Assembly: GCA_903824295.1 (NCBI GenBank)
Contig: CAIJWE010000072.1
Location: 705 to 64,704 of the forward strand
From: an uncultured Chlorobiaceae bacterium
GTDB taxonomy: Bacteria > Bacteroidota > Chlorobiia > Chlorobiales > Chlorobiaceae
DNA: 64,000 bases
Direction: 5' to 3'
Of the stretch, positions 15,945 through 34,977 are shown one piece after another. The first letter of the stretch is position 1. Every line of letters begins with the position of its first letter. The position numbers and the translations under genes are program-made. Below the pieces are notes generated by a model, which had not been told where the DNA came from, did no database searches, and saw nothing but the letters and a program-made list of their open reading frames with translations.

Positions 15945-17347
15945 TTAACCCTTCGGAGAAACCATTATCCATAGAAAAGGCTGTGTCAAGCCTTGCTGCG
16001 GCTTTACAGCTTTATCGTGACAGCCACGCCCTATCCCGCCGTGACCGTCCAGAGCTCGTAACGTTCCGTCAGCCTCTTCAACCGACAAAGCTCCCTGAAT
16101 GGCTTTGCTGTCAGCGGGTCTATCCACGACTCTTCTGGATGAACCGGGAGAAGGATTTTTCCGTGGCAGGTATCGGAGTTGCCGACACCATTGCGTTGCA
16201 CGAATCAGGCAGTAATGCGGCCAGCTTCGAGCAGTTCGAACGCTGCATCGCTGCCAAAAATCCCGATGCACGCTATTTCGGTGGTTTTTGTTTCAACAAC
16301 GAGGAAAAACAGGATCCGATCTGGCAGGAATTCTCCTCATTTTCCTTTATCCTTCCACTTGTCAAGTTAACGTTTGAGGAGGGCGCTTACACCCTCTCCT
16401 GCCACCTCTGGCTGGAAGTTGACGACGAGATAGCGGCAAAAATCAGCGCAATCACCGAAGTACTCGATCGCCTGGTCATCGACACTGATTGCTCTGCAAT
16501 GAAACTGCCTGAGCTGCAAAACATCTCCTATAATCCGGATGAGAACGAGTGGATGGAGCTGTGCCGAAAAGCGCTGCTCACCTTTGAGTCGGGCGAAATG
16601 CAAAAGATCATGCTTGCGCGCCAGACTACGCTTGAATTCAGCCACAGCTTTTCGCCGCTTCTTTTTCTGTTGCGCTACCCCTCTGCACAGAACCCCATCT
16701 ACAGGTTCTACTTTGAACCCGTCGAAAACCATGCCTTTTTCAGCTTTACCCCCGAACGGCTCTACCGCCGGGATGGCAGGATGCTGCTCACGGAAGCACT
16801 GGCAGGAACCTGTTCAAAGGAGTCCACCAACGGCTGTGACCATCTCGCGTCAGCAGTACTTTTGAATTCAGAAAAGGATATCCGCGAACACAACTTCGTC
16901 AAGGAGATGATCTCCCTTGAGCTGCTCAAGATATGCAGCACCATAGATATGGATAAAGAGGTACAGGTGCTGCAACTCAATCGCCTTGCACACCTCTACA
17001 CACGCTGCAGCGCCCAACTGAAACCAGAGTTTGAGCACGACGACAGCGCCGTCCTGCAACTCCTCCACCCCACTCCTGCGGTCGGCGGAGTACCCAAAGC
17101 TCCGGCCATGCAGCATATCATGGAGCTTGAACCCTTCAGCCGTGGCTGGTATGCAGCACCTGTAGGCTGGATAAGCCGGGATGCTGCCGAATTTGCCGTC
17201 GCCATCCGTTCCGCCCTTGTCAATGGCCGTTTTGCCTCTCTCTACTCCGGCGCCGGTCTCGTCAAAGGATCAAACCCCTTTGCCGAATGGGAAGAGGTTG
17301 ATCAGAAAATAGGAGAGCTGCTGGCCATAACCCGGCAGGAAGCATGA
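15941..17347 (+). CDS. menF: Isochorismate synthase
   Basis: Chorismate-binding C-terminus ('LHPTPAVGGVP','RGWYAAPVGW','GAGLV'). Overlaps the menD start. Confidence 0.85.
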   Translation: MINPSEKPLSIEKAVSSLAAALQLYRDSHALSRRDRPELVTFRQPLQPTKLPEWLCCQRVYPRLFWMNREKDFSVAGIGVADTIALHESGSNAASFEQFERCIAAKNPDARYFGGFCFNNEEKQDPIWQEFSSFSFILPLVKLTFEEGAYTLSCHLWLEVDDEIAAKISAITEVLDRLVIDTDCSAMKLPELQNISYNPDENEWMELCRKALLTFESGEMQKIMLARQTTLEFSHSFSPLLFLLRYPSAQNPIYRFYFEPVENHAFFSFTPERLYRRDGRMLLTEALAGTCSKESTNGCDHLASAVLLNSEKDIREHNFVKEMISLELLKICSTIDMDKEVQVLQLNRLAHLYTRCSAQLKPEFEHDDSAVLQLLHPTPAVGGVPKAPAMQHIMELEPFSRGWYAAPVGWISRDAAEFAVAIRSALVNGRFASLYSGAGLVKGSNPFAEWEEVDQKIGELLAITRQEA

Positions 17348-19095
17348 ACAACCGCCAGATCACCACACTGTGGAGCCAGATCATTGTTGAAGAGCTGATC
17401 CGTCAGGGTGCAGATTTTTTCTGCATCTCACCAGGCTCACGCTCAACACCCCTCACCATCGCCATTGCAAGAAACCCGAAAGCGCGATGGAAAATGTTTG
17501 CCGACGAACGCTCAGCAGCCTTTTTTGCACTCGGTTATGGACGCGCAACCGCCCTGCCAGCCGTGCTCGTCTGCACATCCGGCACCGCTGTCGCCAACTA
17601 TTTTCCAGCAGTGGTTGAGGCATCAATGGACTTTCAGCCGATGCTTGTGCTTTCAGCCGACCGTCCCTTCGAGCTGCTTGAATGCGGCGCAAACCAGACC
17701 ATTCGCCAGGAGAACATCTTCGGCGGTTACACCCGGTGGCAGATGCAGCTCCCCGTACCATCAACCGATACTCCCCTCAAAGCGCTGCTCTCTACCATCG
17801 CCTACGCTATAGCAACATCTCTCGGAGAGTCAGCAGGCCCGGTCCACCTGAATCAGCCCTTCCGGGAGCCTTTTGAACCGGAACAACCTGATCAACATGA
17901 TCTCTGGCTTGCTCCCCTCCAGGAGTGGCTTGAAAGCGGAAACCCATTCAGCAGTTCGATAGTACCCGAAAAACAGCCTGACGGCAACACCATCACCATG
18001 CTCCGCAAACTGCTTGCAGCGGCAAAGAGGCCGATGATCATTGCCGGCAGCATGACAAGCAGGGCGGACGCGTTGGCGGTCAATGCACTGTCGATCGACC
18101 TGAACATTCCGCTCTACGCCGATTTTTCATCCGGCCTGAGAATGGTGGCCTCTGCCGATCCCTGGCAGCTCCTGCTCCAGTCAACCGAAGTTCGAAAATC
18201 ATTCAAGTGTGACCTTGTTTTGCACTTTGGCGGCAACGTCATTGCAAAACACCCCGCAACCGCGCTGAAAGAGTGGCAACCGGAACACTACATTGTTGTC
18301 AAGCCGCAACCGACACGCTTTTCCCCCGACCACAACGTCACCTGCCGTCTTGAAGCATCCATTGCACAGACAGCAGGAATGCTGAAAGGGTGCCGCGCCA
18401 CTCCGCCACAACCCGACAGCAACCCCGTTGAGCGCTTTTTCAAAAGAGCATCCGAAGAGATGCAAACCGAACTGCGTCCCGACAAGCCGGTCACCGACAT
18501 CTCCGCTGCCCGACTCGTTTCAGAGCTGATCACCAGCCAACAGGTGCTTTTTGTGTCAAACAGCATGCCCGTCAGAGATATGGACAACTATGCCAACAGC
18601 AGCCATGAAGGAGGCATTCCAACCGCCATCAACCGAGGAGTAAGCGGCATTGACGGCATCATCTCCACCGCTGCCGGTTTTGCTACTGGACACTTGAAGC
18701 CCGCAACACTGATGATTGGCGACATTGCATTTCTGCACGACCTCAACGCCCTCTCGCTCCTCGGCTCACTCCCGGTACCCATGCAGATCATCGTTTTGAA
18801 CAACAATGGTGGCGCAATATTCTCGTTCCTTCCGGTCTCAGCATGCAGCGACGTCTTTGAAACCCACTTCGCCACCCCCCAGAACTACAGCATCCGCTCA
18901 GCCGCCGAAACCTTCGGGCTCGACTATGCCGCCCCGCACACCAACCGCGAATTCAGTGAGGTGTACCGCGCTGCGTGCAGCAGCAACCGGAGCATCATTA
19001 TTGAGGTAAAAAGTTCACGGGCGGAGAATGTACTCCAGCACCGCGCCCTGCGGGAACAAATCATGACGCTGGCGGAAGAGGAACTCTGTCATTAA
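17344..19095 (+). CDS. menD: SEPHCHC synthase (ThDP-dependent)
   Basis: 'CISPGSRSTPL','CTSGTAVANYFPAVVEA','GDIAFLHDLNAL' are MenD signatures. Confidence 0.9.
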   Translation: MNNRQITTLWSQIIVEELIRQGADFFCISPGSRSTPLTIAIARNPKARWKMFADERSAAFFALGYGRATALPAVLVCTSGTAVANYFPAVVEASMDFQPMLVLSADRPFELLECGANQTIRQENIFGGYTRWQMQLPVPSTDTPLKALLSTIAYAIATSLGESAGPVHLNQPFREPFEPEQPDQHDLWLAPLQEWLESGNPFSSSIVPEKQPDGNTITMLRKLLAAAKRPMIIAGSMTSRADALAVNALSIDLNIPLYADFSSGLRMVASADPWQLLLQSTEVRKSFKCDLVLHFGGNVIAKHPATALKEWQPEHYIVVKPQPTRFSPDHNVTCRLEASIAQTAGMLKGCRATPPQPDSNPVERFFKRASEEMQTELRPDKPVTDISAARLVSELITSQQVLFVSNSMPVRDMDNYANSSHEGGIPTAINRGVSGIDGIISTAAGFATGHLKPATLMIGDIAFLHDLNALSLLGSLPVPMQIIVLNNNGGAIFSFLPVSACSDVFETHFATPQNYSIRSAAETFGLDYAAPHTNREFSEVYRAACSSNRSIIIEVKSSRAENVLQHRALREQIMTLAEEELCH

Positions 19096-19208: not shown

Positions 19209-19961
19209 TTAATTCTTGATGCAGCGCACAGACATGCCATCAGCATTCTGTTCAGAGCCTTGAACAAAGGTTGGAAGGTGGTAAGAAAGAGCACCATACC
19301 ATGAGATTGTAGGAGTTACTTCAGAAGAAGTCCAGAAAAAAGCATTTTCACCCATAAAGAAAAAACCTCCATCGACGCCTCTCATGCCACCTGGCATTCC
19401 AGTGAATTTGCTGCTGTTATCGGCTGTAAAATTGGGCCTGCAGACCGATGAAAGTACATTGCCATTAGGAACACATACTGCGGGCTGGCCGCTGTTATCG
19501 GCTGTAAAAATGGGGCTGATCCAAAGTGTGGTGGATTTCATTTTTCCGCCAGCAACATAGACCCCGCCAAGTGCGTTTGAGAGTTTTTTGAACTCCTGAT
19601 TGTTCGGTATATGCCACCCTTTCGGAGCAAGACCGCGAGGATCGTGTACGGCATACCAGTTATAAAGGCGACCATATTTTCCGTTGCCGGCGGCATCATT
19701 TTTGTAGTAGCTCCATGCGCCTTTTCCACTTGCTGCGGCGTCAAGCCACTCCTGTGTCGTAGCGGCATGTTTAATCAGCTCTCCGTTGCGATAACGGCTG
19801 ACGTCAAGATTCTCCTGCATCCAGACCTGACCGCCTATGGTCACGGTATTGATAACGTGTCCGTCAATATCCGTCTCTGCCGCCCGGAGATCTGAAACCG
19901 AAGTCATAACGGTTATCAGGAGAAGAAGTAATCCGTAGAGTGCCTTATGTGAATAGTTCAT
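19209..19961 (-). CDS. Fibrobacter succinogenes major paralogous (FISUMP) domain protein
   Basis: Signal peptide; 'IGGQVWMQENL','GRLYNWYA','APKGWHIPNNQEFKKL' match the FISUMP pattern. Confidence 0.8.
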   Translation of the reverse strand: MNYSHKALYGLLLLLITVMTSVSDLRAAETDIDGHVINTVTIGGQVWMQENLDVSRYRNGELIKHAATTQEWLDAAASGKGAWSYYKNDAAGNGKYGRLYNWYAVHDPRGLAPKGWHIPNNQEFKKLSNALGGVYVAGGKMKSTTLWISPIFTADNSGQPAVCVPNGNVLSSVCRPNFTADNSSKFTGMPGGMRGVDGGFFFMGENAFFWTSSEVTPTISWYGALSYHLPTFVQGSEQNADGMSVRCIKN

Positions 19962-20576: not shown

Positions 20577-22046
20577 TTGTTTACCGTTGCTGAAAAAAAC
20601 CGCCTGAACGTATCAAAGCGTACCGATGCGAAAAAGAAATCGCAGTTAGGGCAATATCTTACCCCCGCAAAGACGGCATCGTTCATGGCAGGGCTCTTTC
20701 CTCGGTCAAGTGGTGAATGCCGCCTGCTGGATGCCGGAGCCGGGATAGGTTCGCTCTCAAGCGCATTTCTTGAACGATGCTCAAAGGGAGATCTGGACTT
20801 CCACTCAATCCGGTTAAAAGCCTATGAGATTGACGACGTCATTCACGAAGAACTTCGAAACTCCCTTTCACCGTACAGTGCCATACCCCGATTCTCTTAT
20901 GAAATCATCGGAGATGATTTTATTGAAGCAGCCGTAAATGCAATTCAATTCAGAGAGTATGACTTTACTCATGCCATTTTAAATCCACCATACAAGAAAA
21001 TTGGGAGTTACTCAAGAGAGCGCCTGCTTCTTCGCCAGGTTGACATCGAAACGGTCAATCTCTATTCAGCTTTTGTGGCACTCGCTATAGCCCTGGCCGC
21101 CCCGGGAGGTCAAATTGTCGCAATTATTCCGCGCAGCTTCTGCAACGGCCCCTACTATCGTCCGTTTCGTGACTTTCTGCTTCAGTATGCTGCCATCCGC
21201 CACATCCACCTCTTCGACTCTCGCAGCCAGGCCTTCCGCGATGATGCCGTCTTACAGGAGAACATTATCATTCGGCTTGAACGTGATGGCTGTGTTGGGC
21301 CGGTGAGGGTTTCAACCTCTACTGACGACACGTTCAATGACCTTGCAACCACAGAATATCCATTCGAAAGCATTCTCTGGCCTGATGATAGAGAGCGCTT
21401 TATCCACATACCAACGTCACAAGAGGACAACTCCACCAAATTCTCCCCGGCAATTTCCTTTCAGTTGAGTGATCTGGGCATACAGGTATCAACAGGGCCG
21501 GTTGTCGATTTTCGGCTGAAAGAGCATCTGCGTGCCATGCCTGAAGCCGATACCGTGCCTCTCCTCTACCCCGGCCATTTCAGTGGTATCAAAAGCCGAT
21601 GGCCTATAGCCGGTATGAAAAAACCGAATGCCATTGTGAGAAACCCTGATACCGAAAAGTGGCTCTACCAGAATGCCTTTTACTGTGTTGTTCGACGCTT
21701 TTCATCCAAGGAAGAAAAACGTCGCATCGTGGCAAGTGTGGTTGAACCCGGCACATTTGGAGACGCAGCCATGCTTGGCTTTGAGAACCACCTGAACCTC
21801 TTTCACGAAAACAAAAAAGGATTGCCGGAAGCATTGGCACGTGGGCTTGCGGTCTATCTCAACACCAGCGCGGTCGATGAGCATTTTCGAAGCTTTAACG
21901 GCCACACACAGGTCAATGCCACAGACCTCCGGCAAATCAGGTATCCAAGCCGTGATGCCCTGACAGCACTCGGGAAATGGGTCATGCGGCAGGATGAGCT
22001 TGAAGAATCAGAAATTGAAGCCAGGATAAAAGCCATGACCGCATGA
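20577..22046 (+). CDS. N6-adenine DNA methyltransferase (Eco57I/PstI-type, gamma class)
   Basis: 'LGQYLTPAKTASFM', motif I 'LLDAGAGIGSLS', motif IV 'ILNPPYKKIG'. TTG start. The stop overlaps the start of the next gene (ATGA 22043-22046). Confidence 0.85.
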   Translation: MFTVAEKNRLNVSKRTDAKKKSQLGQYLTPAKTASFMAGLFPRSSGECRLLDAGAGIGSLSSAFLERCSKGDLDFHSIRLKAYEIDDVIHEELRNSLSPYSAIPRFSYEIIGDDFIEAAVNAIQFREYDFTHAILNPPYKKIGSYSRERLLLRQVDIETVNLYSAFVALAIALAAPGGQIVAIIPRSFCNGPYYRPFRDFLLQYAAIRHIHLFDSRSQAFRDDAVLQENIIIRLERDGCVGPVRVSTSTDDTFNDLATTEYPFESILWPDDRERFIHIPTSQEDNSTKFSPAISFQLSDLGIQVSTGPVVDFRLKEHLRAMPEADTVPLLYPGHFSGIKSRWPIAGMKKPNAIVRNPDTEKWLYQNAFYCVVRRFSSKEEKRRIVASVVEPGTFGDAAMLGFENHLNLFHENKKGLPEALARGLAVYLNTSAVDEHFRSFNGHTQVNATDLRQIRYPSRDALTALGKWVMRQDELEESEIEARIKAMTA

Positions 22047-23026
22047 AACGAAAAAAACAATATATCAAGGAGGCTCTTCAGGTTATCGCTTCACTTGGCT
22101 TGCCACGAGAACAGCATAACGAACGTTCTGCTCTTTGCCTTCTGGCTCTTCTTGGAATGACTCCAGGCAAGGAGTGGAGTGATGCTGAAAACCCGCTTAT
22201 GGGTATTACGCCTGTCATGGATTGGGTTCGTGAACACTATCGCAAGGAGTATGCCCCAAACACACGCGAAACATTCCGGCGGCAGACAATGCACCAGTTC
22301 TGCGACGCAGGTATCACGCGGTATAACCCCGACAAACCTGATCGTGCAGTTAACAGCCCCAAAGCGGTCTATCAAATCGAGTCCTCCACTCTGGCGCTGC
22401 TCCGCACCTTTGCCTCCAACACCTGGCATGAAGCACTGACAGCCTACCTCTCAGAAAGGGAGACGCTTATCGCCCGTTATGCAAACGAGCGTGAGCAGAA
22501 CCGCATTCCGGTTGAAATTGCTCCGGGAAAAAAAGTCACCCTGAGCCCCGGTGAGCACAGCCAACTGATCAAGTCCATTATCGAGAATTTTGCCTCTCGA
22601 TTTGCTCCCGGAAGTGTGCTGGTCTATGCTGGTGACACCGGTGACAAATGGAGTTATTTCGACGCTCCCCTGCTGTCAAGGTTGGGTGTAGATGTGGATG
22701 CTCATGGAAAGATGCCCGATGTCGTTCTGCATTACGCCGAAAAGAACTGGTTGTTGCTTGTTGAAGCAGTAACAAGTCACGGGCCCGTCAATGGAAAGCG
22801 GCACGACGAGCTTGCAAAGCTCTTCGAAGGGTCAAGCGCTGGACTGGTTTATGTGACAGCCTTTCCTGACCGGGCACTCATGAGTCGTTATCTTGGGGAT
22901 ATTGCATGGGAAACCGAGGTCTGGGTTGCTGACTCCCCCTCTCATCTCATACATTTCAATGGGCATCGCTTTCTTGGGCCGTATAGTGAGCCTGTTGATG
23001 TCAAGAAGATTGAACCTTTAGACTGA
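22043..23026 (+). CDS. BsuBI/PstI-family type II restriction endonuclease
   Basis: 327 aa (R.PstI is ~326 aa). 'PDVVLHYAEKNWLLLVEAVTSHGPVNGKRHDEL' matches the BsuBI/PstI catalytic region as I remember it. Coupled to the methyltransferase. Confidence 0.8.
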   Translation: MKRKKQYIKEALQVIASLGLPREQHNERSALCLLALLGMTPGKEWSDAENPLMGITPVMDWVREHYRKEYAPNTRETFRRQTMHQFCDAGITRYNPDKPDRAVNSPKAVYQIESSTLALLRTFASNTWHEALTAYLSERETLIARYANEREQNRIPVEIAPGKKVTLSPGEHSQLIKSIIENFASRFAPGSVLVYAGDTGDKWSYFDAPLLSRLGVDVDAHGKMPDVVLHYAEKNWLLLVEAVTSHGPVNGKRHDELAKLFEGSSAGLVYVTAFPDRALMSRYLGDIAWETEVWVADSPSHLIHFNGHRFLGPYSEPVDVKKIEPLD

Positions 23027-23036
23027 TTTTTGGCCA

Positions 23037-23369
23037 ATGTGGAACATGAACGACATTGTGCGTATCGCCTGCAAAGAGGGGTATGTTTACCATATCATCT
23101 TTGATAACGGCATCAGTGGCGACGTTGATTTTTCCGAATATCTTTCAAAGGGCCCTGTTTTTGAGCCGTTGAGAGAGTTAGCTTTTTTCCGGAAAGCATC
23201 AATTGAGGGTGGAACCATATCATGGCCAAATGGTGCAGACATTGCGCCCGAAACGCTCTACGACAAAATCCTGCAAGCTCAAAGCGATATCAATCCCGAG
23301 TGCCTTCATTCACAACCTGCAGATCATTTTCGAGAAGAAGTACAATCTCCCCTTTCGCTTCAGGGATAA
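23037..23369 (+). CDS. DUF2442 domain protein
   Basis: 'YHIIFDNGISGDVDFSEYL..GPVFEPLR...FFRKASIEGGTISWPNGADIAPETLY' is the DUF2442 pattern. Confidence 0.7.
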   Translation: MWNMNDIVRIACKEGYVYHIIFDNGISGDVDFSEYLSKGPVFEPLRELAFFRKASIEGGTISWPNGADIAPETLYDKILQAQSDINPECLHSQPADHFREEVQSPLSLQG

Positions 23370-23384
23370 AACGGGTGGCGAATT

Positions 23385-26120
23385 TCACTGCCTCTTATTT
23401 TTTTCTTTGAGGAGCATCTTTTGAAGATGCTCAACAACCGCCTGAGCATCACTATACTCTCCGGTGCTGCGGGCACGCTCACGCGATGCAAGCCCTCGGG
23501 CAATGAACTCCGATGTGTCTGCAAGAATGGTACGAATAGCTTCGGTCAGTTTATCGGAGGTATCTTGTTCTGACTCAGTCAAGTCAAGCAGAAATGCGGT
23601 GGCTTCGGGATTGATACGGCCATAGGTCAGAGTTTCTGCAAAATGACCTTCCTGAAGGGCGCGGAAGAGTGCACGGGCAAAAAAGAACTCAAGAAAGCTT
23701 CGGTGCGAAAAGCGGTAATAGCCGTCAGTACTCCGCACAAGGAAAGAGGCTGTACGCAGTTCAAGGTCAACCCGCTCACTGTCGAGGCTGCGGGCAAGTC
23801 CACCTTCATGATGCAGCAGCACGGCGAGATCGGTGTAGTGAATCTGGTTGCGTGGCCTGCTCCAAAGCTCACAGGCCATGCGCTCAAGCAGGTCGCGCAT
23901 GTGATCGACATTTACCTCCCCTTGGCTCAGAAGAATGGCGTTCAACCAGCGGGTAGTGTAGGTCAGGTAGAGTGACCCGGTGGTCACTTTCTCTCCCTGT
24001 TTTATCAGATCGGGAAGAGAAGCTACAATCATATCAAGCAACTGGGGTGTTGAAGCGATATCCTGAAAGCCATATCTCTCTTCGATAAACTGCCGCGCCT
24101 GATCACCCTCAACAATGCCGAGGCGCTTTTGCAAGTACTCGGCAATCTGCTCATTTGTGAAGACGGGCAAAGTATCGAGCGTAGCATCGAAAGCACGTGC
24201 AGCCTTGCCCAGAGCTGAATCTGCTTCGAAGAGCTTGTCACTACCCTCAACTGCTTGCCGAGCACTGCTGTTGTCGCGGAAGAAGTGGCTGCGAGAGGTG
24301 ATGAGTACCCGGTTGGCACGTGGGTTACGACCGGAATTTGCTGTTGGACGCACCAGTTGGCGGAACTGCTCTTCAACACTGCGTCCGGCCTGAGCTACGC
24401 CCATTTCATCAAAACTGTCGAGCAGGAGTACCAAGCGCCCGGCTTCAAGCAAGTGCAGCACGATCTCTGGATTGAGCACGGTGCGCAGTTCGGTTTCGAG
24501 ATGCTCGCGAATCAGGCTTTCAATCGAAATGGCATTGGGAAACTGGCGCAGATTGATTTCGACCGGAATCGGGCTTTCGGGATTATTTTCGCAGTTACGG
24601 GCAAGTTCGTAGGCAAGACGCTCAACCAGCGTGCTTTTACCGGTACCATAATCGCCGAGCACCAGCCACAATCGACTTCCCGCTCCTGAAACCCACTGGA
24701 GCGCATGAGGCAACATCGGCACCGGTTTTTCGTCGGGCTGCTTTTCAAGAATCAGATATTGATCGACATAGTTACCTGCAAGTGCACTTGCTTCGTAGCG
24801 CTGACGGATGCGGGCAAGGTAGGGTGAAAAATCGAAGAGACTGCGCTCAAGTTCATCGTAGGTGAGGGCCAATATCCCTGCATTTTTTGAGGTTTTGCGG
24901 GCTGCGGGGGTGAAATCGTGTGAAGCAATAATCATACCTTTTGCCTGCATTACTCTGGCATCAGGGTCATCAAGCCAGGTTCTGAATTTCGTAACAGTTC
25001 CCTCTGGAGTGACGGCCTGATGATCCTTACACTCTACAAGATAAACCTCCTCTCTTCCGAAATCGCTTCTTTTCCGGGCAACCAGGTCTATCCTGTGCGA
25101 ATCGATCAACTGTTCCCGTTCAACGGTATAACCAAGCAGACGCAGAAGGTGGGCAACTCGCTCTTCGAATCTTTTACCTTGTGCATTGCTCTCCTTGTTA
25201 CGGCGGGTTATCAGGTCGGGACGGGTATCGTCGCTACGACGGGCCGTCTCGCTCTCAGCGATAACCTGCTGGCGCACTTTGTCGATTCGGCGTTCCAGAT
25301 CGTTATAGGCTTTGGCTACCGGAGTTTCCGGGCGTGTTGCTGCGTAAAGTTCTTCGGTGAAGAGCATACGCTGATCAAAAGGGATGGTGTCCAGCTCAGA
25401 GTGTGTCAGACCAAAGGACTCTTTCCAAATCTCTTGGCCTTGGGCACGCAAATCTGAAATATCCGGAATCGGTGAAGCAACCAGCAAGCGGGTAAGGGGC
25501 GGCAGCGTACCCCGTGCGGCAATTCGCCCCTCGCAGGCTGATTGGAGGGCTTGCCAGACGTGGGCAAGTCCTTTGGTATTTTGCCTGCCGTAGTTGCCGA
25601 CAAGAACGGTGGCGTGTGGCAGCAGGGCGGCAAGCAGACCGCCAATGTCGGTGATACCAGTACGAGAGTCGAGCAACACTGTTTCGAAACCTGCTTTACC
25701 GAAGGCATCAAGGATACCGCGAAAAAGCCCAAGACCGCTGTCGAGATCACGAACCAGAAAATCGTCCCAACGGATGCTCTGGAAAAGCCCGGCAAAATCT
25801 TTGTTATCGCCATAGGCGGGCAAGATGAAGAGGCGATCCTGTTCCGGCGTCTGGCAAGCGAGTTTGACAAGTTTGCCGAAATCAGCTTTGTTCGATGCTT
25901 TTCCAGACTCCTGCCATGCAATCATCCATTCAAAAAAACCCTCTTTGACCGGTTTTGATGGTGTCAACCCCGGGATATTGTGCAACCCAGGCGCTTCGAT
26001 ATCAAGATCCCACAGCAGCGTCTTGCCGCGCCGGGCGCAAAGAACACCGATATTGGCGGCAAGCAGGCTGCGCCCGACTCCGCCCTTGAAGCTGTAGAAG
26101 GTTACGATGAAGGGAGTCAT
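23385..26120 (-). CDS. Fusion protein: ParA/MinD-like ATPase (variant KGGVGR P-loop) + Mrr-like restriction endonuclease + NACHT/STAND NTPase
   Basis: aa 1-290: 'FYSFKGGVGRS', 'LWDLD', 'VLLDSRTG'. aa ~315-430: 'GKRFEERVAHLLRLLGYTV..RIDLVA..VYLVECKD' (PD-(D/E)xK). aa ~480-870: Walker A 'GDYGTGKST' (nt ~24634-24657), Walker B 'LVLLLDSFDEM', 'RVLITSRSHFF', and a winged helix 'YRFSHRSFLEFFFA'. Confidence 0.8.
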   Translation of the reverse strand: MTPFIVTFYSFKGGVGRSLLAANIGVLCARRGKTLLWDLDIEAPGLHNIPGLTPSKPVKEGFFEWMIAWQESGKASNKADFGKLVKLACQTPEQDRLFILPAYGDNKDFAGLFQSIRWDDFLVRDLDSGLGLFRGILDAFGKAGFETVLLDSRTGITDIGGLLAALLPHATVLVGNYGRQNTKGLAHVWQALQSACEGRIAARGTLPPLTRLLVASPIPDISDLRAQGQEIWKESFGLTHSELDTIPFDQRMLFTEELYAATRPETPVAKAYNDLERRIDKVRQQVIAESETARRSDDTRPDLITRRNKESNAQGKRFEERVAHLLRLLGYTVEREQLIDSHRIDLVARKRSDFGREEVYLVECKDHQAVTPEGTVTKFRTWLDDPDARVMQAKGMIIASHDFTPAARKTSKNAGILALTYDELERSLFDFSPYLARIRQRYEASALAGNYVDQYLILEKQPDEKPVPMLPHALQWVSGAGSRLWLVLGDYGTGKSTLVERLAYELARNCENNPESPIPVEINLRQFPNAISIESLIREHLETELRTVLNPEIVLHLLEAGRLVLLLDSFDEMGVAQAGRSVEEQFRQLVRPTANSGRNPRANRVLITSRSHFFRDNSSARQAVEGSDKLFEADSALGKAARAFDATLDTLPVFTNEQIAEYLQKRLGIVEGDQARQFIEERYGFQDIASTPQLLDMIVASLPDLIKQGEKVTTGSLYLTYTTRWLNAILLSQGEVNVDHMRDLLERMACELWSRPRNQIHYTDLAVLLHHEGGLARSLDSERVDLELRTASFLVRSTDGYYRFSHRSFLEFFFARALFRALQEGHFAETLTYGRINPEATAFLLDLTESEQDTSDKLTEAIRTILADTSEFIARGLASRERARSTGEYSDAQAVVEHLQKMLLKEKNKRQ

Positions 26121-26779
26121 GCGGCATCGTTCATGTTTCGAATTTTCAAGTGCGATTGAATCGTGGCGTCTGTTGAGAATAACCCTCGAAAACCTGTCAC
26201 GGGTGCAGCCGTCTTTGGCGCTGCGCTTGTAGCGTGCTTCCTCCCGTTCTCAGTGAGTTGCAAAAGAATATCACGGCCATGTTTCCGCTTGGTTACCAAG
26301 CCGCTTGATTCGAGATTCCCGATAAGCTGAGTGACTCGCCCCGCACTGACTCCAAGTTTTTTAATAAGATCCAGTTGGGGGAGTTCACGATTTCCTGTTT
26401 CGAGAAGCAATTGCAGGATTTCCGGAACATGACGGCGTTTCAGTTGTGTCTCAGGATCGGCATGGGCAAGATTGAGTCGCCTCGCTTCGAGCATATCACT
26501 CGCCTCCTGCCATCGGTATATGAACTCTTCAGGAAGCGATGCTGGCGAATTTGCACCGTTAAGAGTTCGATGAATAAGACGTTGCATTTCAGATATACCT
26601 TCGCGATCGTTGAGTCGAGCAATTGCATCCATTGACCAGACGGTAATCAACAGATTGGCCATATCCAGAGCCTGTTCATCCCATTTTTCAAGTGTCCGAA
26701 TGGCTTCAAAGAGTTCGGATGGTGTAGAGCGATCGACAAACAGTATAGGATCGCTGGCATGAAGATCGAGTGTGCTCAT
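26117..26779 (-). CDS. Winged-helix (MarR-like) DNA-binding protein, N-terminal domain unknown
   Basis: The C-terminus 'LDLIKKLGVSAGRVTQLIGNLESSGLVTKRKHGRDILLQLTENG' is wHTH-like. The stop overlaps the start of the 911-aa gene (ATGA). Confidence 0.6.
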   Translation of the reverse strand: MSTLDLHASDPILFVDRSTPSELFEAIRTLEKWDEQALDMANLLITVWSMDAIARLNDREGISEMQRLIHRTLNGANSPASLPEEFIYRWQEASDMLEARRLNLAHADPETQLKRRHVPEILQLLLETGNRELPQLDLIKKLGVSAGRVTQLIGNLESSGLVTKRKHGRDILLQLTENGRKHATSAAPKTAAPVTGFRGLFSTDATIQSHLKIRNMNDAA

Positions 26780-26863
26780 GAGAGTATTTCTAAATTATCC
26801 TAAACCTTTTTAGTTAGAATTAATTTAACATTATTTAGCTATTAAAAAATTCCTGCCTGCATA

Positions 26864-28150
26864 TCAACTCAAGTCAACCAGCGTAAAATAGTCGAATTCA
26901 TCCCTGGTTACAGAGACGATAACCAGATCTTCTTTACACTCAACAAATTTCTGGTGCTGCACAAACCCGCGCACTGGAGTTGAACCAGCAGGCATTTCCT
27001 GATTGGCGACAGCCACAATTGTTCCGAGCGTATCGTGCATTGTTTTTGCTGTCGCCTTATGTGGATTAAGTTTATCGGTCATGCTCGGAACAAGCAGCCA
27101 GTCAAGCGGCAGAGAAGCCAACACCATGGCAGGTTCGCCTTCAAAAAAATCTTTGCAGATCGCCATGGCCATCAGTCCGAGTGATGTAAACAAGCAGGTA
27201 AAATGATTCGGAGCACATTCTATACCCTCCTTTCGCTTGTTAAAGGTAACCGATTTGCGCTTATCGCAGCCAAACAGGAGTGTGCCGTCCAGCCCAAGCA
27301 TAGCCTCAGCATGATTTCGCCACCCTTTTTCGACCTGCTCATGGAAGCTTCCGAGAACAATGAGAGGAACCGAGAGGGAATGCTTTTCACCATTTTTTCT
27401 GTGCAATTGCTGAAACTCTGAAACGATTCGGGATCTGATATCGGGAGTGATTGTAAGCTCTGGCATCACAAGGATGTGAGCGTTTCGTTTTTTTTCTTCA
27501 CTGATATGGTGCAGCGCCGATGCAAAACGCGTTTCAGTGTCACTGATCTCTTTGCAGATGAAGTGCGAGGGCTTCTTGTCAGAAACATTCGGCCTCACTC
27601 CGTCATCAAAATGAACGACGGCAATTCTGATCGTTGTTGCAGAAAAATGATTTGCAAGCCAATCATGGTAGCCCCTCGGTATTCCAACCACATTGACAGG
27701 AATCTTTTGAGGGTTATTGTGCGGTACCACTCTGTAATGCTTCAACCAATAGGCAATATTGCCAAATTGCAAGCGCTTTCCACCCCCGCACGATTCAGAT
27801 TTTTGATAAATTGGCAGCATCCAGACCTGATCTTCACCATCATCAATACGTAAATTCCGTAAATAACCATACGATTTCGGGTTAATACGAACGCAAAAAT
27901 CGTCAAGAGCCCTAAGCCAAAGCAACGGATCATTGTTGACCTCTTCGGACGTAATCGTTGATTCTTTATTGTCGATGCTTTCGATGCGATCTATGGCATC
28001 CATGAGCATCAATTCATCCTTTTCATGCTGGTTTTCCCAATCGTCAAGAACCCGGCGACCATCAATAGTTGGCGAACCCGCAAGTCGGCACAGACGGGCA
28101 AGAGCCTGGCGGTAACTTTTGGCATTGATAAATTCAGCTACCTTTTCCAT
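26864..28150 (-). CDS. Two-domain protein: unknown N-terminal domain + nitrilase-superfamily (CN-hydrolase)-like domain
   Basis: aa ~173-428 follow the CN-hydrolase layout: 'IRIAVVHFD', 'AHILVMPE(231)L', 'LFGCDK(297)RK', 'GLMAMAIC(332)KDFFE', 'DWLLVPS'. I recognise no motif in aa 1-170. Confidence 0.6.
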   Translation of the reverse strand: MEKVAEFINAKSYRQALARLCRLAGSPTIDGRRVLDDWENQHEKDELMLMDAIDRIESIDNKESTITSEEVNNDPLLWLRALDDFCVRINPKSYGYLRNLRIDDGEDQVWMLPIYQKSESCGGGKRLQFGNIAYWLKHYRVVPHNNPQKIPVNVVGIPRGYHDWLANHFSATTIRIAVVHFDDGVRPNVSDKKPSHFICKEISDTETRFASALHHISEEKKRNAHILVMPELTITPDIRSRIVSEFQQLHRKNGEKHSLSVPLIVLGSFHEQVEKGWRNHAEAMLGLDGTLLFGCDKRKSVTFNKRKEGIECAPNHFTCLFTSLGLMAMAICKDFFEGEPAMVLASLPLDWLLVPSMTDKLNPHKATAKTMHDTLGTIVAVANQEMPAGSTPVRGFVQHQKFVECKEDLVIVSVTRDEFDYFTLVDLS

Positions 28151-28396
28151 ACTTGAGCTTCACCTGTTGTTCTGGCAGAGCCGGAAAATAGTAACGTCAT
28201 TCCGGCGTTGATTGCACAACCAATCCAGATGATTGCGACAGAAGAGTATCTGCTCAGGTTACAAAGTTTTTTCTTGCTTAACAACCATCATTTTCACTCG
28301 CAAATCATTTTCTGCACATCGATAAGGTTTCTATATTAATCCGGAATCGTTCCTGATGACCACCCTAAACAAGCATAACAATCTGTCAATAATAGT

Positions 28397-29221
28397 ATGC
28401 CCACAACAACCAGTTCCAATAGTGAGACCCCACTCAACACTGAAAGCGTAAAGGATTCTTCCCTGCCCCGCATCATCTTTTTGCACGGCTTTCTGGGCTC
28501 GGGGAGCGACTGGGCTCCAATGGCCCGGCAGCTTGAAAATGATTATTGCTGCATTCTGGTTGACTTGCCTGGGCACGGAGAGAGCGATATAGAAGCAAAC
28601 GGCAACCCTGACCTCTTTTTTACCGAAACTGTCGATGCGCTTGCGGAAGAACTGAGCCGCTCGGCAACTCCCGAACCCTGCTTTCTTGTCGGCTATTCGA
28701 TGGGCGGGCGTATCGCGCTCTCCCTGCTGCTGCGCCACCCGGAACTCTTTGCCAAAGCGATTATTGTCTCTGCCTCCCCCGGCCTCAGAACCGAAGAGGA
28801 GCGCCTCAACCGACGGGAAAGCGACGAAGGTATTGCACGAAAAATTGAAAAAAACTTTGAGGGATTCATTGATGCGTGGTATGAGCAGCCACTCTTTGCC
28901 ACACTCAAAAGTCACCCGATATTCAAAGAGGTTGAGGGTGAACGAAAAATCAATAATCCTGAAAATCTTGCCCTTGCTCTCAGGTTGCTCGGCACGGGTC
29001 GGCAGCCCTCTGCGTGGGATGAACTGCAAAAAAACAGGGTGCCGATACAATTTTTTGCAGGGGAAAAAGACCTGAAATTCGTTGAGATTGGGCGTCAAAT
29101 GGTTAATTTATGCACTGAATCAACGCTTGAGATTTTTCCCGGCTGCGGTCACACGCTGCACATTGAAAACCGGGAGCTGTTTCTTGACCGCCTGACACAA
29201 TTTTTCAACAAGCATCAATAA
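28397..29221 (+). CDS. menH: SHCHC synthase (alpha/beta hydrolase)
   Basis: 'FLHGFLGS', nucleophile elbow 'GYSMGGR', and its position immediately upstream of menB. Confidence 0.8.
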
Positions 29222-29228
29222 TCCTGAT

Positions 29229-30050
29229 ATGAGCGCTGTAAACTGGATACCAGAAGGTGACTTTACCGACATCCTTTACCATAAAGCTGAAGGCATTGCC
29301 AAAATCACCATCAACCGCCCGGAAGTGCGCAATGCGTTCCGCCCGCAAACGGTTGACGAGATGATTGAGGCCCTTCAAGATGCAAGGAATGACAATGCAA
29401 TTGGTGTTATTATCCTCACGGGCCAGGGCGATCTGGCCTTCTGCTCGGGCGGCGACCAGAAAATCAGGGGTAACGCCGGTTATGCCGACGGCAAAGGGGT
29501 CAACAAGCTCAATGTCCTCGATTTTCAGCGCGATATCCGCACCTGCCCGAAACCGGTTATTGCCATGGTTGCCGGGTACTCCATCGGCGGCGGCCACGTG
29601 CTCCACATGCTCTGCGACCTCACCATTGCGGCTGAGAATGCCATCTTCGGCCAGACCGGCCCCAAGGTTGGTTCATTTGACGGAGGATGGGGTGCAAGCT
29701 ATATGGCACGGCTTGTCGGTCAGAAAAAGGCACGCGAAATATGGTTCCTCTGTCGCCAGTACAATGCTGCAGAAGCGCTTGCCATGGGGCTGGTGAACAC
29801 CGTTGTGCCGCTCGAACGGCTCGAAGAGGAGACCGTGCAGTGGTGCCGCGAAATTCTTGCCAACTCCCCGCTTGCCATCCGCTGCCTGAAGTCGGCTCTT
29901 AATGCCGATTGTGACGGTCAGTCTGGCCTGCAGGAACTTGCTGGCAATGCCACCATGCTCTATTATATGAGTGAAGAGGGTCAAGAGGGGCGCAACGCCT
30001 TTGTCGAAAAACGGAAGCCTGATTTCAGCAAATTTCCCAAAAGACCGTGA
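29229..30050 (+). CDS. menB: 1,4-dihydroxy-2-naphthoyl-CoA synthase
   Basis: Crotonase fold; '[12 protein letters not shown]','FCSGGDQK','[10 protein letters not shown]','[17 protein letters not shown]'. Confidence 0.92.
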
Positions 30051-31120
30051 ACGCGGCGCATATCGTTCTCTACCGATATGCCATCCCCTTTACGGAGCCC
30101 GTCACCGTCAAGGGGCGGCGTCTTGTGCAACGGGAGGGCATTATCGTTGCACTGAAAAGTCAGGGAGAGCGGCATATCGGCTATGGTGAAATTGCTCCGC
30201 TTCCGGGTCTGCACCGGGAAGTGCTGCAATCAGCCGAAGCACAACTGGTAGAGCTGCTGGCAAAACACGATCTTGCCAATCCCAGCCTTTTGCTGGAAGG
30301 GCTCTACCCCTCGGTTCGTACCGGTCTGGAGATGGCGATGATCAACCTTGACGCAGCCATAGGGGGCACTCTTCCCGCTTTTGCAGATGCCGGGCCTGCC
30401 GCCCGCCAGGTACCAGTCAATGCTCTCCTCTTTGGCGATACAACGCTCGTCACACAGCGGGCAGAGGAGTATTTCACACTTGGATACCGCACCTTCAAGC
30501 TTAAAGTCACGGCAAGTGATACCGAGAGTGCCATCAGAAGCATCAGGGCACTGTACCGCACCTTCGGAGATCGTATTGAGCTACGGCTTGATGCTAACCA
30601 GTCGCTCACACTTGACGAAGCGCTCGATTTTGCGCAACACATTCCGCAAGGAAGCATCGCCTATATCGAAGAGCCACTGAAAAAGGCCGAGCTGATTAGC
30701 GAATTTTGGGCAAAAACAGCGATCCCCTCAGCACTCGACGAAACGCTCTGGCAAAAACCTGAACTGCTCTCTGAACTTCCTGAAGCATCACTTGCGGCGC
30801 TGATACTGAAGCCAAGCCGGTTGGGAGGTATTTCAACCGCACTGACCTTCGCCAGATATGCGAGAGAACACAATCTGCTTGCGGTTTTCAGCTCCGCGTT
30901 CGAAAGCGGCATCAGTCTGAGCTTTTACGCCTGGTTGGCAGCATCAACTGCCGTCAAACCAGCCGCCTGCGGGCTCGACACCTACCGTTATCTGAAGCAC
31001 GACCTGCTCGAAACAGCGTTTGGAGCTGAGAATGCTCTGCTTGATGCTCAAAAACTCTACGGAGAAGGGTTAAAGGTCAATCAAAGATGTCTCAAGCGTA
31101 CTTCAGTATGGACATTATAG
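30047..31120 (+). CDS. menC: o-succinylbenzoate synthase (enolase superfamily)
   Basis: 'FKLKV','LRLDANQS','YIEEP','LKPS' metal and acid-base motifs, plus men-operon context. Confidence 0.85.
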
Positions 31121-32592
31121 GGCCGGCGGCAACGCGATTCGGCAACGCGCCCATGCTGAGAATTGGTGGCAAAACGATCTCCTTCACTGAATGCGAGAGA
31201 GCAGCGCAAAAGATTGCAAAGAGCCTCGGACGAAAGGGAGTTCGTGCCGGAGATATTGTGGCAATTGCCGCGCCAAACAGCGGGGAGATGGTACTGCTTC
31301 TTCTCGGGCTGCTGAAAGCCGGCATGATTGCCGCGCCGCTCAACTACCGTTTTCCGGAACACCTGCTCAGCAAAACGCTGGAACGGCTGAATCCCCGTCT
31401 GGTGGTTACCTCCCATCACGAGCAATTCACCCGTTTCAGCACAGTAACACTTGCCTCACTTCTTGACTATCCGTCGCGCGGCACAGAACGCAGCAAAACC
31501 CTTGAGGAGAGCCCGACTGACGCACCTCCGGAGTCTGGAGCAGCGAACACAATGGATCGTTCCGTAACCATTATCCACACCTCCGCAAGCTCGGGGGAGG
31601 CAAAAGCGGCTCTGCACAGCTTTGCCAACCACTGGTATAACGCTCTCGGCTCGAATGAAAATATTGCGTTTGGTGCGGGTGACTGCTGGCTTCTTTCACT
31701 GCCGCTCTACCACATTGGCGGCTACTCACTCCTTTTCCGATCGCTCATCTCCGGCGGCGCACTTGCTCTCGCAGAACCGGATGAATCGCTCGGCCAATCG
31801 CTGCAAAACTTCCCGCTCACCCACCTCTCCCTTGTACCCACGCAGCTCTACCGTCTGCTTGATGACCAAAAGAGCACGGCCCTGCTCCGCCAGTTGAAGG
31901 TCGTTCTGCTCGGCGGAAGTGCCGCGCCAAAATCGCTGATTGAAGAGGCTATCCGCGAGGCTATCCCCCTCTACCTGAGTTACGGCTCAACCGAGATGGG
32001 ATCACAGATTGCAACCACTCCTGCACCGATAACCGCCACCGAGCAGAACAGCGGCCAACTCCTCCCCTACCGGGAGCTGAGTGTAGCAAAAGATGGAGAG
32101 TTGCTGGTCAAAGGGCCCTGTCTCTTTCAGGGATACTTGCGAGATGGCGTTATTCAGCCCCAAACCGACCGGGAGGGGTGGTTTCATACCGCCGACATCG
32201 GCACTTTATCAAAAAAAGGGGAGGTTACCGTACTTGGCCGCAAGGACAATATGTTCATCTCAGGAGGGGAAAACATCCACCCCGAAGAGATCGAAAGAGC
32301 ACTGATGATGGTTGAGGGTATTCTGGAAGCTCTGGTCATCGCGGCTCCTGATAAGGAATATGGCCATCGCCCCGTGGCCTTCATAAAAACCGCTGCTGCA
32401 GAAACACCTGATGACGCAACCGTCGTCGAGGCCATGCGCTCTATGGTTGGAAAACTGAAAAGCCCGACCAGTTACAGCCGGGTAAACGAGTGGACGACAC
32501 TGCCTGGCTCACAAAAGATCGACCGTAAATTTTACAACAAGCTGGTTCTTGACGGCTATTGGCCGCTCAGCCCCGTGCCGCCTGACGCTTAA
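31087..32592 (+). CDS. menE: o-succinylbenzoate-CoA ligase (AMP-binding)
   Basis: 'IIHTSASSGEAKA','SYGSTE','WFHTADIG','GGENIHPEEIE' adenylate-forming motifs. The start may be Met at 31108. Confidence 0.85.
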   Translation: MSQAYFSMDIIGPAATRFGNAPMLRIGGKTISFTECERAAQKIAKSLGRKGVRAGDIVAIAAPNSGEMVLLLLGLLKAGMIAAPLNYRFPEHLLSKTLERLNPRLVVTSHHEQFTRFSTVTLASLLDYPSRGTERSKTLEESPTDAPPESGAANTMDRSVTIIHTSASSGEAKAALHSFANHWYNALGSNENIAFGAGDCWLLSLPLYHIGGYSLLFRSLISGGALALAEPDESLGQSLQNFPLTHLSLVPTQLYRLLDDQKSTALLRQLKVVLLGGSAAPKSLIEEAIREAIPLYLSYGSTEMGSQIATTPAPITATEQNSGQLLPYRELSVAKDGELLVKGPCLFQGYLRDGVIQPQTDREGWFHTADIGTLSKKGEVTVLGRKDNMFISGGENIHPEEIERALMMVEGILEALVIAAPDKEYGHRPVAFIKTAAAETPDDATVVEAMRSMVGKLKSPTSYSRVNEWTTLPGSQKIDRKFYNKLVLDGYWPLSPVPPDA

Positions 32593-33143: not shown

Positions 33144-33668
33144 TTATTCAGTTTTTTTGTTCAATGATTCAAAAAACATTTTTCGCAAATTTTTATTGGG
33201 ACGAATATTTTGCGTTCCGCCATTTGTGGTATGAACTTGAATTTGCATTGTTGCGATATCTAACGGAGATTTGATGAAGTCTTTACAAAGGCCATTGATC
33301 CATGAGAATTTTTCATCCAAAGGAATACACCAATGACCTTGATCACCATCATTCAGTAACATTGGAATTTTATCTGAATAATTGTCTCGGTCAACAGGAA
33401 TGATTCCATAACGTCTTCTAAACAGGCCAATACGGATACCAATGTTATTAATTACAGTTCCACGGCTACCAATATTTGTGATATCTATAGACACAAGATT
33501 TTGCTTAAGCATTCCGCCGCCTAACCTAACCGTATATCCGCAATATCCTCTAAGTCTGACCCTTTGTGAGATTTTGGCTATATATAAAGCCACAATAGCC
33601 GCAGAAAGCGAACCAATACCGGAGACCCAATCGGCAACTGAGCCCCAATTGATAGTTGAGACATCCAT
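33144..33668 (-). CDS. Hypothetical protein, N-terminal TM helix
   Basis: 174-aa ORF in a visibly AT-richer stretch. TM segment 'WVSGIGSLSAAIVALYIA'. No recognisable family. Confidence 0.45.
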   Translation of the reverse strand: MDVSTINWGSVADWVSGIGSLSAAIVALYIAKISQRVRLRGYCGYTVRLGGGMLKQNLVSIDITNIGSRGTVINNIGIRIGLFRRRYGIIPVDRDNYSDKIPMLLNDGDQGHWCIPLDEKFSWINGLCKDFIKSPLDIATMQIQVHTTNGGTQNIRPNKNLRKMFFESLNKKTE

Positions 33669-34321: not shown

Positions 34322-34540
34322 TCAGGCTTGCTTTTTCACCTTTTGCTGAGCCCGAATTTCAGCAAGAACATCGTCCAATGAGAGATGGTCGAAAAGTGCC
34401 GCTCGCTCCTCAGTATAATTTCCCGTGCCTGTAGAAAATTGACCAATAAAACGCATGGTGTCAGCAGAACCAATTTCTCTGGTAAGTACCCGGAGCGCCT
34501 GATTGGTTACTTCAGTTAAAGACTTTGCTGGAATATTCAT
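34322..34540 (-). CDS. Putative antitoxin partner of the upstream PIN protein
   Basis: 72-aa ORF overlapping the PIN gene stop by 4 nt. I could not assign a family. Confidence 0.45.
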   Translation of the reverse strand: MNIPAKSLTEVTNQALRVLTREIGSADTMRFIGQFSTGTGNYTEERAALFDHLSLDDVLAEIRAQQKVKKQA

Positions 34541-34977
34541 GGTTCGATTACCTCAATAAGTTCCAAAGGAGAAACAACCTTTGTTTGTTCTGTTTCAACT
34601 TGTTTTGCTCGCCGAAAAAAACGGTCATCACACGTGCAAAAATAAGTTGCATGAGCTTCTACCACACAAGCAAGATGCAAGGCATCCAATACATTAATCC
34701 CATTATGGACGTAGCCTTGAGCGCGTCGCTCTACCGAATCCCCAGCCTGAATAACCTGGCTACTTTTCAATAACGTTTGTAAAACAAAAGCTTTTCTTGC
34801 GGGATAAGGATTGTGATCAACTTCGTAACCCAATGCCACGGAATTGAGTAATTCGGCACTCCCTGATTCACACCAAGTAAGTATACCAAGTATAGCCTCA
34901 GCTTCCAAGTGAATGCGCAAATGTGTTTGATCGTCCATTGGACGCTGTAAACAGCACATGTCCAAATAAATTCGCAT
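34537..34977 (-). CDS. PIN-domain nuclease (VapC-like toxin)
   Basis: Acidic PIN residues in the expected order: 'IYLDM', 'EAEA', 'LDALHLA', 'CTCDDRF'. Confidence 0.65.
   Translation of the reverse strand: MRIYLDMCCLQRPMDDQTHLRIHLEAEAILGILTWCESGSAELLNSVALGYEVDHNPYPARKAFVLQTLLKSSQVIQAGDSVERRAQGYVHNGINVLDALHLACVVEAHATYFCTCDDRFFRRAKQVETEQTKVVSPLELIEVIEP

Follow-up and report, generated by a model that had tools for sequence, protein, structure and literature searches.

What does an enzyme of the nitrilase superfamily do beside a STAND NTPase in a bacterial defence island? This question is raised by a stretch of DNA from an uncultured Chlorobiaceae bacterium (GenBank assembly GCA_903824295.1, contig CAIJWE010000072.1, positions 705 to 64,704), all 64,000 nucleotides (nt) of which are referred to below as the window, and in whose numbering positions are given. 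The gene concerned (26864..28150, minus strand) encodes a CN-hydrolase family protein of 428 amino acids (aa) and is the first of a module of three, the others coding for a winged helix-turn-helix (wHTH) protein and for a large protein that joins a ParA-like domain to a STAND NTPase. An original prediction, made from the letters of this stretch, proposed a Glu-Lys-Cys catalytic triad behind an unrecognisable N-terminal region, and a new type of anti-phage effector controlled by the STAND protein. That interpretation is partly supported by our analysis; it overlooked the wHTH gene as a member of the module, the Mrr nuclease and KGGVGR ParA-like domains of the partner, and the sensor that is missing from this copy. 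Judging from comparisons of sequence across lineages, we would give an even chance to the reading that an active amidase serves as the conserved effector in an NLR-like (STAND) conflict system of three genes, whose role is most likely anti-phage defence or abortive infection.

The hydrolase and its predicted active site

The motifs on which the enzymatic assignment was originally based are all found at the numbering given for them (IRIAVVHFD at 173-181, PE231L, CDK297RK, AIC332KDFFE and DWLLVPS), and a further residue, E308, occupies the place of the second glutamate in the E-K-E-C tetrad of nitrilases, with the canonical order kept. The four codons lie on the minus strand at 27458-27460 (E231), 27260-27262 (K297), 27227-27229 (E308) and 27155-27157 (C332), within a catalytic nitrilase-fold domain that takes up the C-terminal ~255 aa (residues 171-428; 26867..27640, minus strand) and that is recognised by its invariant columns and by alignment with the catalytic motifs of Nit2. 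Because searches with the single sequence were sub-threshold or empty, the identity of the protein rests on family profiles and on structure. Queried by itself, the window protein gives a weak match to PF00795 (E=0.032, 14 bits, for a gathering cutoff of 23.2), and it retrieved nothing from the PDB (phmmer), NCBIfam, PADLOC or PHROGs. A homologue search of 5.8 billion proteins yielded 65 clusters, and 37 diverse members were aligned; 22 of these 37 match PF00795 singly (E<=0.01, best 6.8e-11), and the profile of all 37 matches mouse Nit2 (2w1v, 1e-7), NAD synthetase (5kha, 9e-6) and NitFhit (1ems, 5e-5) in the PDB, in alignments that place all four motifs (Glu, Lys, second Glu, Cys) in register. 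With an AlphaFold2 model of the full protein (pLDDT 92.3, pTM 0.91), Foldseek returned 156 PDB matches at E<=0.001, the best at 2.7e-11 with a probability of 1.00; every one of the 50 matches listed belongs to the nitrilase superfamily (target TM 0.54-0.67). The check by PF00795 and Foldseek that had been proposed is answered in two ways, the Pfam score of the window protein falling short while 22 of the 37 aligned members and the modelled fold match.

All four tetrad residues are invariant in the 37 aligned sequences, in 28 of 28 genomic homologues, in 92 of 94 full-length ones and in both (2/2) of the homologues from alphaproteobacterial plasmids, and D183, R208, H270 and D334 are further invariant residues of the hydrolase. 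Taken together, profiles and model confirm the open reading frame (ORF) at 26864..28150 as encoding a nitrilase-superfamily (CN-hydrolase) enzyme with an intact predicted active site. The nearest structures are the omega-amidase Nit2, N-carbamoylputrescine amidohydrolase, D-carbamoylase and the glutaminase domain of NadE. With Nit2, N-carbamoylputrescine amidohydrolase and the NadE glutaminase the protein shares the four-layer alpha-beta-beta-alpha fold and the order of the tetrad, and with Nit2 also a C-x-D arrangement around the nucleophile (ICKD in the window hydrolase, ICYD in Nit2). It differs from the Nit2 and NadE branches, however, in its low identity to them (~15%, with a score below Pfam gathering), in a private N-terminal domain of 170 aa, in the additional invariant residues listed above, and in being embedded in a STAND operon rather than a metabolic one. 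By analogy with the nearest enzymes, whose substrates are small molecules with terminal amide or carbamoyl groups, the target is most plausibly a metabolite or an amide of the Gln/Asn type; the modified nucleobase that had also been suggested finds no support among these small-molecule amidases and carbamoylases.

A conserved three-gene module

That the closest structures are metabolic enzymes raises the possibility that the gene product is a common amidase of metabolism or detoxification, accompanied by a MarR-type regulator and without any role in conflict, the STAND neighbour being coincidental or regulatory. Further points in its favour are the position of the Chlorobiaceae gene between menD and menH, and the copies of the hydrolase-wHTH pair carried on plasmids of xenobiotic-degrading Sphingobium. 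Genomic context speaks against it. In five context look-ups and at 37 genomic loci, which come from Chlorobiaceae, Rhodocyclales, Magnetococcales and Myxococcota, the order hydrolase, wHTH, large ParA-like protein recurs almost without exception where sufficient DNA is available downstream, and no locus with space for a wHTH gene behind the hydrolase lacks one. Such strict synteny with the ParA-like/STAND gene in four lineages, accompanied by start/stop overlaps, also bears out the proposed genetic link with a STAND NTPase, of the NACHT kind, in surroundings typical of conflict systems. Genes found near the module in the different loci include those for restriction-modification (RM), DUF2442/DUF4160, ParE, PemK, BrnT/BrnA, Abi_2 and further NACHT-FGE-sulfatase proteins.

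The flanking housekeeping genes, on the other hand, vary by lineage (the men operon in Chlorobiaceae, hrpA in Rhodocyclales, elsewhere a PAS sensor or a kinase), and across the lineages that carry the module we found no conserved metabolic neighbour, the flanks differing in every one. In the window the module is transcribed divergently from menH, across an intergenic region at 28151..28396, and because the flanks are unrelated outside Chlorobiaceae, the men adjacency is, on comparison of loci, to be read as an insertion site and not as a functional link. Neither conserved metabolic neighbours nor a canonical MarR protein, the marks of a MarR-regulated catabolic amidase operon, were found. The family is also rare and patchily distributed, only 181 clusters having been found among 1.84 billion representatives, and its frequent pseudogenisation is a further point against a metabolic role, which we regard as highly improbable.

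Frequent decay of the module is suggested by frameshifted hydrolase genes in three loci (L019, L021 and L045), by loss of the STAND gene in a Chlorobiaceae locus (L013) in which the hydrolase-wHTH pair is followed by 4HB_MCP and RecD2, and by a deletion in the window that is described below. The frameshifted genes are spread over two or three frames on contigs of metagenome-assembled genomes (MAGs; L019 9992-11292, L021 9992-10928, L045 9464-10866), and are either pseudogenes or assembly errors. One Chlorobaculum MAG (JAAXXD) holds two divergent paralogous copies of the three-gene module (L018 and L020). A search of phage genomes found no homologue.

The ParA-like/STAND partner and its nuclease

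In the window the third gene (23385..26120, minus strand) encodes a short STAND protein of 911 aa without C-terminal sensor repeats, in which a KGGVGR ParA-like domain (~25371-26120; NCBIfam AAA_KGGVGR, 1.6e-32), an Mrr-type nuclease with a D...ECK motif (~24843-25184; Pfam Mrr_cat, 1e-14) and a NACHT domain (~23961-24671; Pfam NACHT, 1.6e-11) are encoded on the same strand. Partners from related loci always start with the ParA-like domain, which is usually followed by Mrr, NACHT and hypervariable sensor modules, and the C-terminal sensors differ even between close relatives, being FGE-sulfatase, WD40, pentapeptide or TPR. Because the motifs KGGVGR[ST], D-x-D-x-x-APG and D-[SAC]-RTG are kept in all 27 of the 27 partners examined, their sequences suggest that the ParA-like domain is maintained by selection as a nucleotide switch instead of decaying. 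Walker A (GDYGTGKS) and Walker B (LLLDSFDE) of the NACHT domain are conserved wherever this domain is present. In a variant found in six Magnetococcales loci (L026, L029, L033, L035, L037 and L038), the third gene comprises a KGGVGR ParA-like domain, an unassigned middle part and TPR, neither Mrr nor NACHT being detectable; these variant loci also encode longer wHTH proteins.

The presence of a nuclease in the partner offers a second explanation of the module, in which the role of effector falls to the Mrr domain of the STAND protein, as in the bNACHT25 type, and the hydrolase acts upstream by making or destroying a ligand for the MarR-like wHTH protein, setting a threshold for expression or activation. 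MarR/ArsR-type wHTH domains commonly bind small ligands, and the wHTH protein of the module is MarR/ArsR-like by its Pfam and NCBIfam matches. Mrr-NACHT proteins are moreover established defence effectors (10.1101/2022.07.19.500537), and the D...ExK motif is intact in the partners from Chlorobi, Rhodocyclales and some Magnetococcales. In other lineages, however, the Mrr motif is degenerate (RCK or ACK in Archangium/Pyxidicoccus) or unrecognisable (Kofleriaceae), and Mrr is absent altogether from one Magnetococcales group and from the P0065 contig, whereas the hydrolase tetrad is intact in all of the lineages in which Mrr is degenerate or absent. As the tetrad is invariant while Mrr is degenerate or absent in several lineages, the hydrolase is the only constant catalytic candidate of the module. 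Two further observations tell against a ligand-making role: the wHTH protein departs from a canonical MarR in possessing a single winged helix behind a private domain of 110 aa, and the private, docking-type domain of the hydrolase suggests protein-protein coupling over a free metabolic role. Overall, we consider a scheme with Mrr as effector and an upstream hydrolase to be quite unlikely.

The wHTH protein and the orphan N-terminal domain

The second gene of the module (26117..26779, minus strand) encodes the wHTH protein of 220 aa (Pfam HTH_24, 2.1e-7) and is separated from the hydrolase gene by an AT-rich spacer of 84 nt (26780..26863, minus strand). Its product consists of a family-specific N-terminal part of ~110 aa and a single MarR/ArsR-like winged helix at residues 120-185, the MarR scores of which are sub-threshold or borderline in Pfam; a word-indexed search with this protein returned close Chlorobi relatives alone. 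The wHTH stop codon and the STAND start codon overlap (ATGA, 26117-26125), overlaps of this kind (ATGA or GTGA) recur in ~29 of 37 related loci, and the arrangement of the codons shows translational coupling of the wHTH and sensor genes. A scan for promoters and terminators gave the same counts as shuffled sequences. Many of the wHTH proteins in the 37 loci end in -AA (14), -AS (6) or -SA (4), endings which resemble C-terminal protease degrons; on sequence grounds they could be such degrons, or could merely reflect the constraint of a GCATGA overlap.

The first 170 residues of the hydrolase (27641..28150, minus strand) form an orphan domain of helices and a small beta element, modelled with confidence as part of the whole protein and also by itself (pLDDT 88 by itself), in which R19, L20, D83 and Q128 are invariant. 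That this region resembles nothing recognisable holds for structure and sequence alike: Foldseek found no neighbour in the PDB (best E=4) or the BFVD (best E=0.85), and a sequence search of the PDB found no relative. RPN8/MPN was considered as a relative and rejected, its match being weak (E=0.09-0.3) and without support from Foldseek. An exhaustive search of 1.84 billion representatives with a hidden Markov model (HMM) of the domain, which answers the call for a survey of its homologues, returned just 181 clusters, in every one of which it is N-terminal, and among the full-length matches it is joined to a CN-hydrolase in 92 of 94. Given this constant position and association, the domain is, as far as sequence databases go, private to this hydrolase, and it may be a new adaptor. 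One match (P0124), in which the domain is followed by an ABC ATPase, was entertained as an effector swap and rejected, as the junction lies within the first strand of the hydrolase; from its sequence it is most likely a chimeric assembly or a rearrangement. Another (P0230) is a low-complexity repeat.

The conserved pairing of hydrolase and wHTH protein suggests a third explanation, namely that the two form a self-contained cassette resembling a toxin-antitoxin (TA) system, with the amidase as toxin and the wHTH protein as inhibitor and autorepressor, to which most lineages have added the ParA-like/STAND protein as an acquired trigger. Three loci do carry the pair without a STAND gene: the Chlorobiaceae locus L013 mentioned above, and loci on two large alphaproteobacterial plasmids, Sphingobium pTK1 (L049) and the Methylobacterium megaplasmid pMaq22A_1p (L050), in both of which the tetrad is intact. 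As in type II TA systems, an enzyme gene is here paired with a gene for a small DNA-binding protein, and the pair occurs alone on plasmids and beside other TA genes, the pTK1 copy lying near BrnT/BrnA. The N-terminal domains of the two proteins are both family-specific and are found together, and the degron-like endings of many wHTH proteins would fit an antitoxin. Against this, a 428-aa enzyme encoded first and a 220-aa partner encoded second are atypical of type II TA systems in order and in size, being much larger than the usual components, and in most cases the pair is linked to a giant sensor protein; the -AA ending is moreover partly forced by the GC(A)TGA overlap of start and stop. In pTK1, which is a conjugative plasmid, a 160-aa gene of unassigned family overlaps the wHTH stop codon, and in the Methylobacterium locus an IS21-like transposase gene lies just upstream of the pair. 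The 160-aa product had been considered a SecB-like chaperone by motif resemblance, a candidate that we rejected because Pfam, NCBIfam and the PDB gave no SecB matches and because the Methylobacterium ORF in the same position is unrelated to it; the chaperone suspected downstream of the pair in pTK1 is thus unsupported. We find it rather doubtful that the pair is a cassette of this kind with an acquired trigger, although such a reading is compatible with a STAND-controlled effector and does not exclude it. A combined version, in which hydrolase and wHTH protein form a previously unrecognised effector-inhibitor cassette, an NLR-like sensor unleashes the amidase via the KGGVGR ParA-like switch on an essential metabolite or protein side chain that bears an amide, and the N-terminal domain is a new docking fold that couples the two, is tentatively entertained here, at somewhat less than an even chance; NLR-type immunity would then possess a metabolite-amidase arm.

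A possible mechanism

If the amidase is indeed the effector of a STAND conflict system, we envisage that the C-terminal repeats of the partner would sense an invader and that its STAND/ParA-like part would then oligomerise. The signal would be transmitted by the wHTH protein and the N-terminal domain of the hydrolase, which we infer to be the obvious coupling elements between STAND protein and enzyme, and the hydrolase would either be released or be assembled into an active oligomer. Once active, it would destroy an essential compound bearing a terminal amide or carbamoyl group, or a Gln/Asn amide in proteins, and growth would stop. The wHTH protein would probably serve both as an inhibitor or adaptor of the enzyme and as an autorepressor. 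STAND proteins act via induced oligomerisation. Nitrilase-fold enzymes generally need to oligomerise for activity (PMC13275509, PMC13436386), a property that DRT1 exploits (PMC13275509).

In favour of a STAND-controlled amidase are the fold, the tetrad, the synteny, the coupling of the genes, the variability of the sensors, the optional nature of the nuclease and the frequency of decay. Several observations weigh on the other side. Most STAND partners carry an apparently intact Mrr, which could be the real effector and the hydrolase its accessory; the Chlorobiaceae module sits inside a menaquinone gene cluster; the hydrolase is matched by no PADLOC or PHROG model; and a literature search found no experiment, such as one on phage protection, for any member of the module. 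The three loci that keep the hydrolase-wHTH pair without a STAND gene also count here, since their existence implies that the enzyme is not strictly sensor-dependent.

Comparison with known defence systems

The original prediction held that no anti-phage effector of this type had been characterised, a statement that is no longer tenable, as nitrilase domains are required effectors in DRT1 (UG1; PMC13275509) and in UG5/DRT11 (PMC13436386). As described, both resemble the system proposed here in employing a nitrilase-fold effector in an abortive-infection type of defence controlled by oligomeric state (PMC13275509, PMC13436386). The DRT systems differ, however, in their reverse transcriptase, a domain that we did not find in the three module genes or in their neighbours in the window. 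Control of the module also differs, being assigned to a NACHT/ParA-like protein and a wHTH protein encoded in trans, and the hydrolase has no match among PADLOC models.

Nor is a link between CN-hydrolases and STAND proteins wholly new. The bNACHT study names CN-hydrolase among NACHT-associated domains in the legend to its Figure 2, and its Table S1 contains, without comment, a Methanosarcina protein of the architecture DrHyd-NACHT-HEAT-CN_hydrolase, in which the hydrolase is a C-terminal fusion (10.1101/2022.07.19.500537); this is the only recorded NACHT-CN-hydrolase link. The partner protein resembles the bNACHT/Avs systems and the conflict systems of Kaur et al. 2020 in its NACHT domain with GxxGxGK[ST] and DSFDE, in its N-terminal Mrr, in its FGE-sulfatase, WD40, pentapeptide or TPR sensors, and in its occurrence in aggregating or multicellular lineages. 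Characterised bNACHT/Avs systems are mostly single genes with fused effectors, in contrast to the module, in which CN-hydrolase and wHTH protein are separately encoded, obligatory partners. MinD/ParA-like domains in NTP-dependent conflict systems were predicted to be inactive by Kaur et al. 2020, who do not mention nitrilases (PMC7159879), and our literature searches found nothing relevant on the KGGVGR domain and no description of a trans-encoded hydrolase-wHTH-ParA/STAND operon.

The window locus and the loss of its sensor

In the window the module is part of an island lying between menD (17344-19095) and menH-menB-menC-menE (28397-32592), an insertion site that is common to L001, L046 and L047. 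Comparison with these loci indicates that the partner has been reduced. In L046 and L001 it is a single protein of 1920 aa, in which ParA-like, Mrr and NACHT domains are followed by DUF4062, a second NACHT and FGE-sulfatase. Three genes stand in its place in the nearest strains, which come from at least 3 samples and have a 98% identical hydrolase: one for a short STAND protein of 916 aa, a DUF2442 gene on the opposite strand, and a separate gene for a DUF4062-NACHT-FGE-sulfatase protein of 1050 aa. By blastp and blastn comparison with L046, the window STAND gene upstream of ~23513 matches residues 1-865 of the 1920-aa relative and ends in a divergent tail of ~40 aa (23385..23513, minus strand), and the DNA downstream of ~23513 matches L046 sequence several kb further on. 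Relative to the sister strain L047, ~3.9 kb holding the DUF4062-NACHT-FGE-sulfatase gene are absent at a deletion junction at 22990..23010: window 32000..23001 aligns with L047 4148-13165 at 88% identity, and the alignment resumes from window 23000 at L047 17064.

We initially took the 911-aa protein for a simple truncation of the 1920-aa one, a view that was revised because sister strains have the short form together with a separate second STAND gene. These comparisons instead suggest a history in two steps, in which a 1920-aa double-NACHT protein was split by a DUF2442 cassette and its second half was then deleted. The variable C-terminal sensor present in relatives is accordingly absent from the window's 911-aa partner, no other record of exactly this protein was found, and the system is reduced to hydrolase, wHTH protein and a sensorless STAND protein. 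Now that the sensor-bearing STAND gene is gone, the window's copy may have lost its activity or may act in another way.

The DUF2442 gene of the window (23037..23369, plus strand; Pfam DUF2442, 1e-16) is convergent with the STAND gene, and in the sister strains it lies between the two STAND genes. Its product weakly matches a model of the DhiA antitoxin (7.6e-6, far below the cutoff), and L046 contains DUF2442 genes paired with DUF4160 around its STAND genes (L046 6226-6789 and 18170-19282). From their positions, DUF2442 genes seem to mark points of rearrangement.

Further along the island lies a PstI/BsuBI-type type II RM pair (20577..23026, plus strand), consisting of a methylase of 489 aa and an endonuclease of 327 aa (Pfam BsuBI_PstI_RE 1.9e-63; PADLOC MTase_II 6.5e-198 and REase_II 3.4e-155), which by these matches is a complete neighbouring defence system; the same endonuclease gene occupies the equivalent position in L047. 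A gene for a protein with a Fib_succ_major domain (19209-19961, minus strand; Pfam 2.3e-40) also belongs to this island and is situated between menD and the RM pair. Beyond the men genes, small ORFs at 33144-33668 and 34537-34977 (both minus strand) lie in a stretch of low GC (0.41-0.47) before dapB/parB; this stretch is absent from L001, in which dapB directly follows a 181-aa gene, and it is possibly another small insertion.

Conclusions

Nitrilase defence effectors and a NACHT-CN-hydrolase fusion were already known; what appears to be new here is a rare operon of a trans-encoded hydrolase, a wHTH protein and a ParA/STAND protein. The window locus, having lost its sensor gene, is worth less than the family as a whole. 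The module provides a concrete set of partners for the enigmatic KGGVGR ParA-like domain, previously predicted to be inactive in conflict systems. Nitrilase effectors entered the defence field only recently, with DRT1 and DRT11, and a free-standing enzyme would offer a second and simpler handle on their substrate. If our reading is correct, nitrilase-fold chemistry would have come under NLR-like STAND control independently of DRT1 and DRT11, pointing to a recurrent immune strategy.

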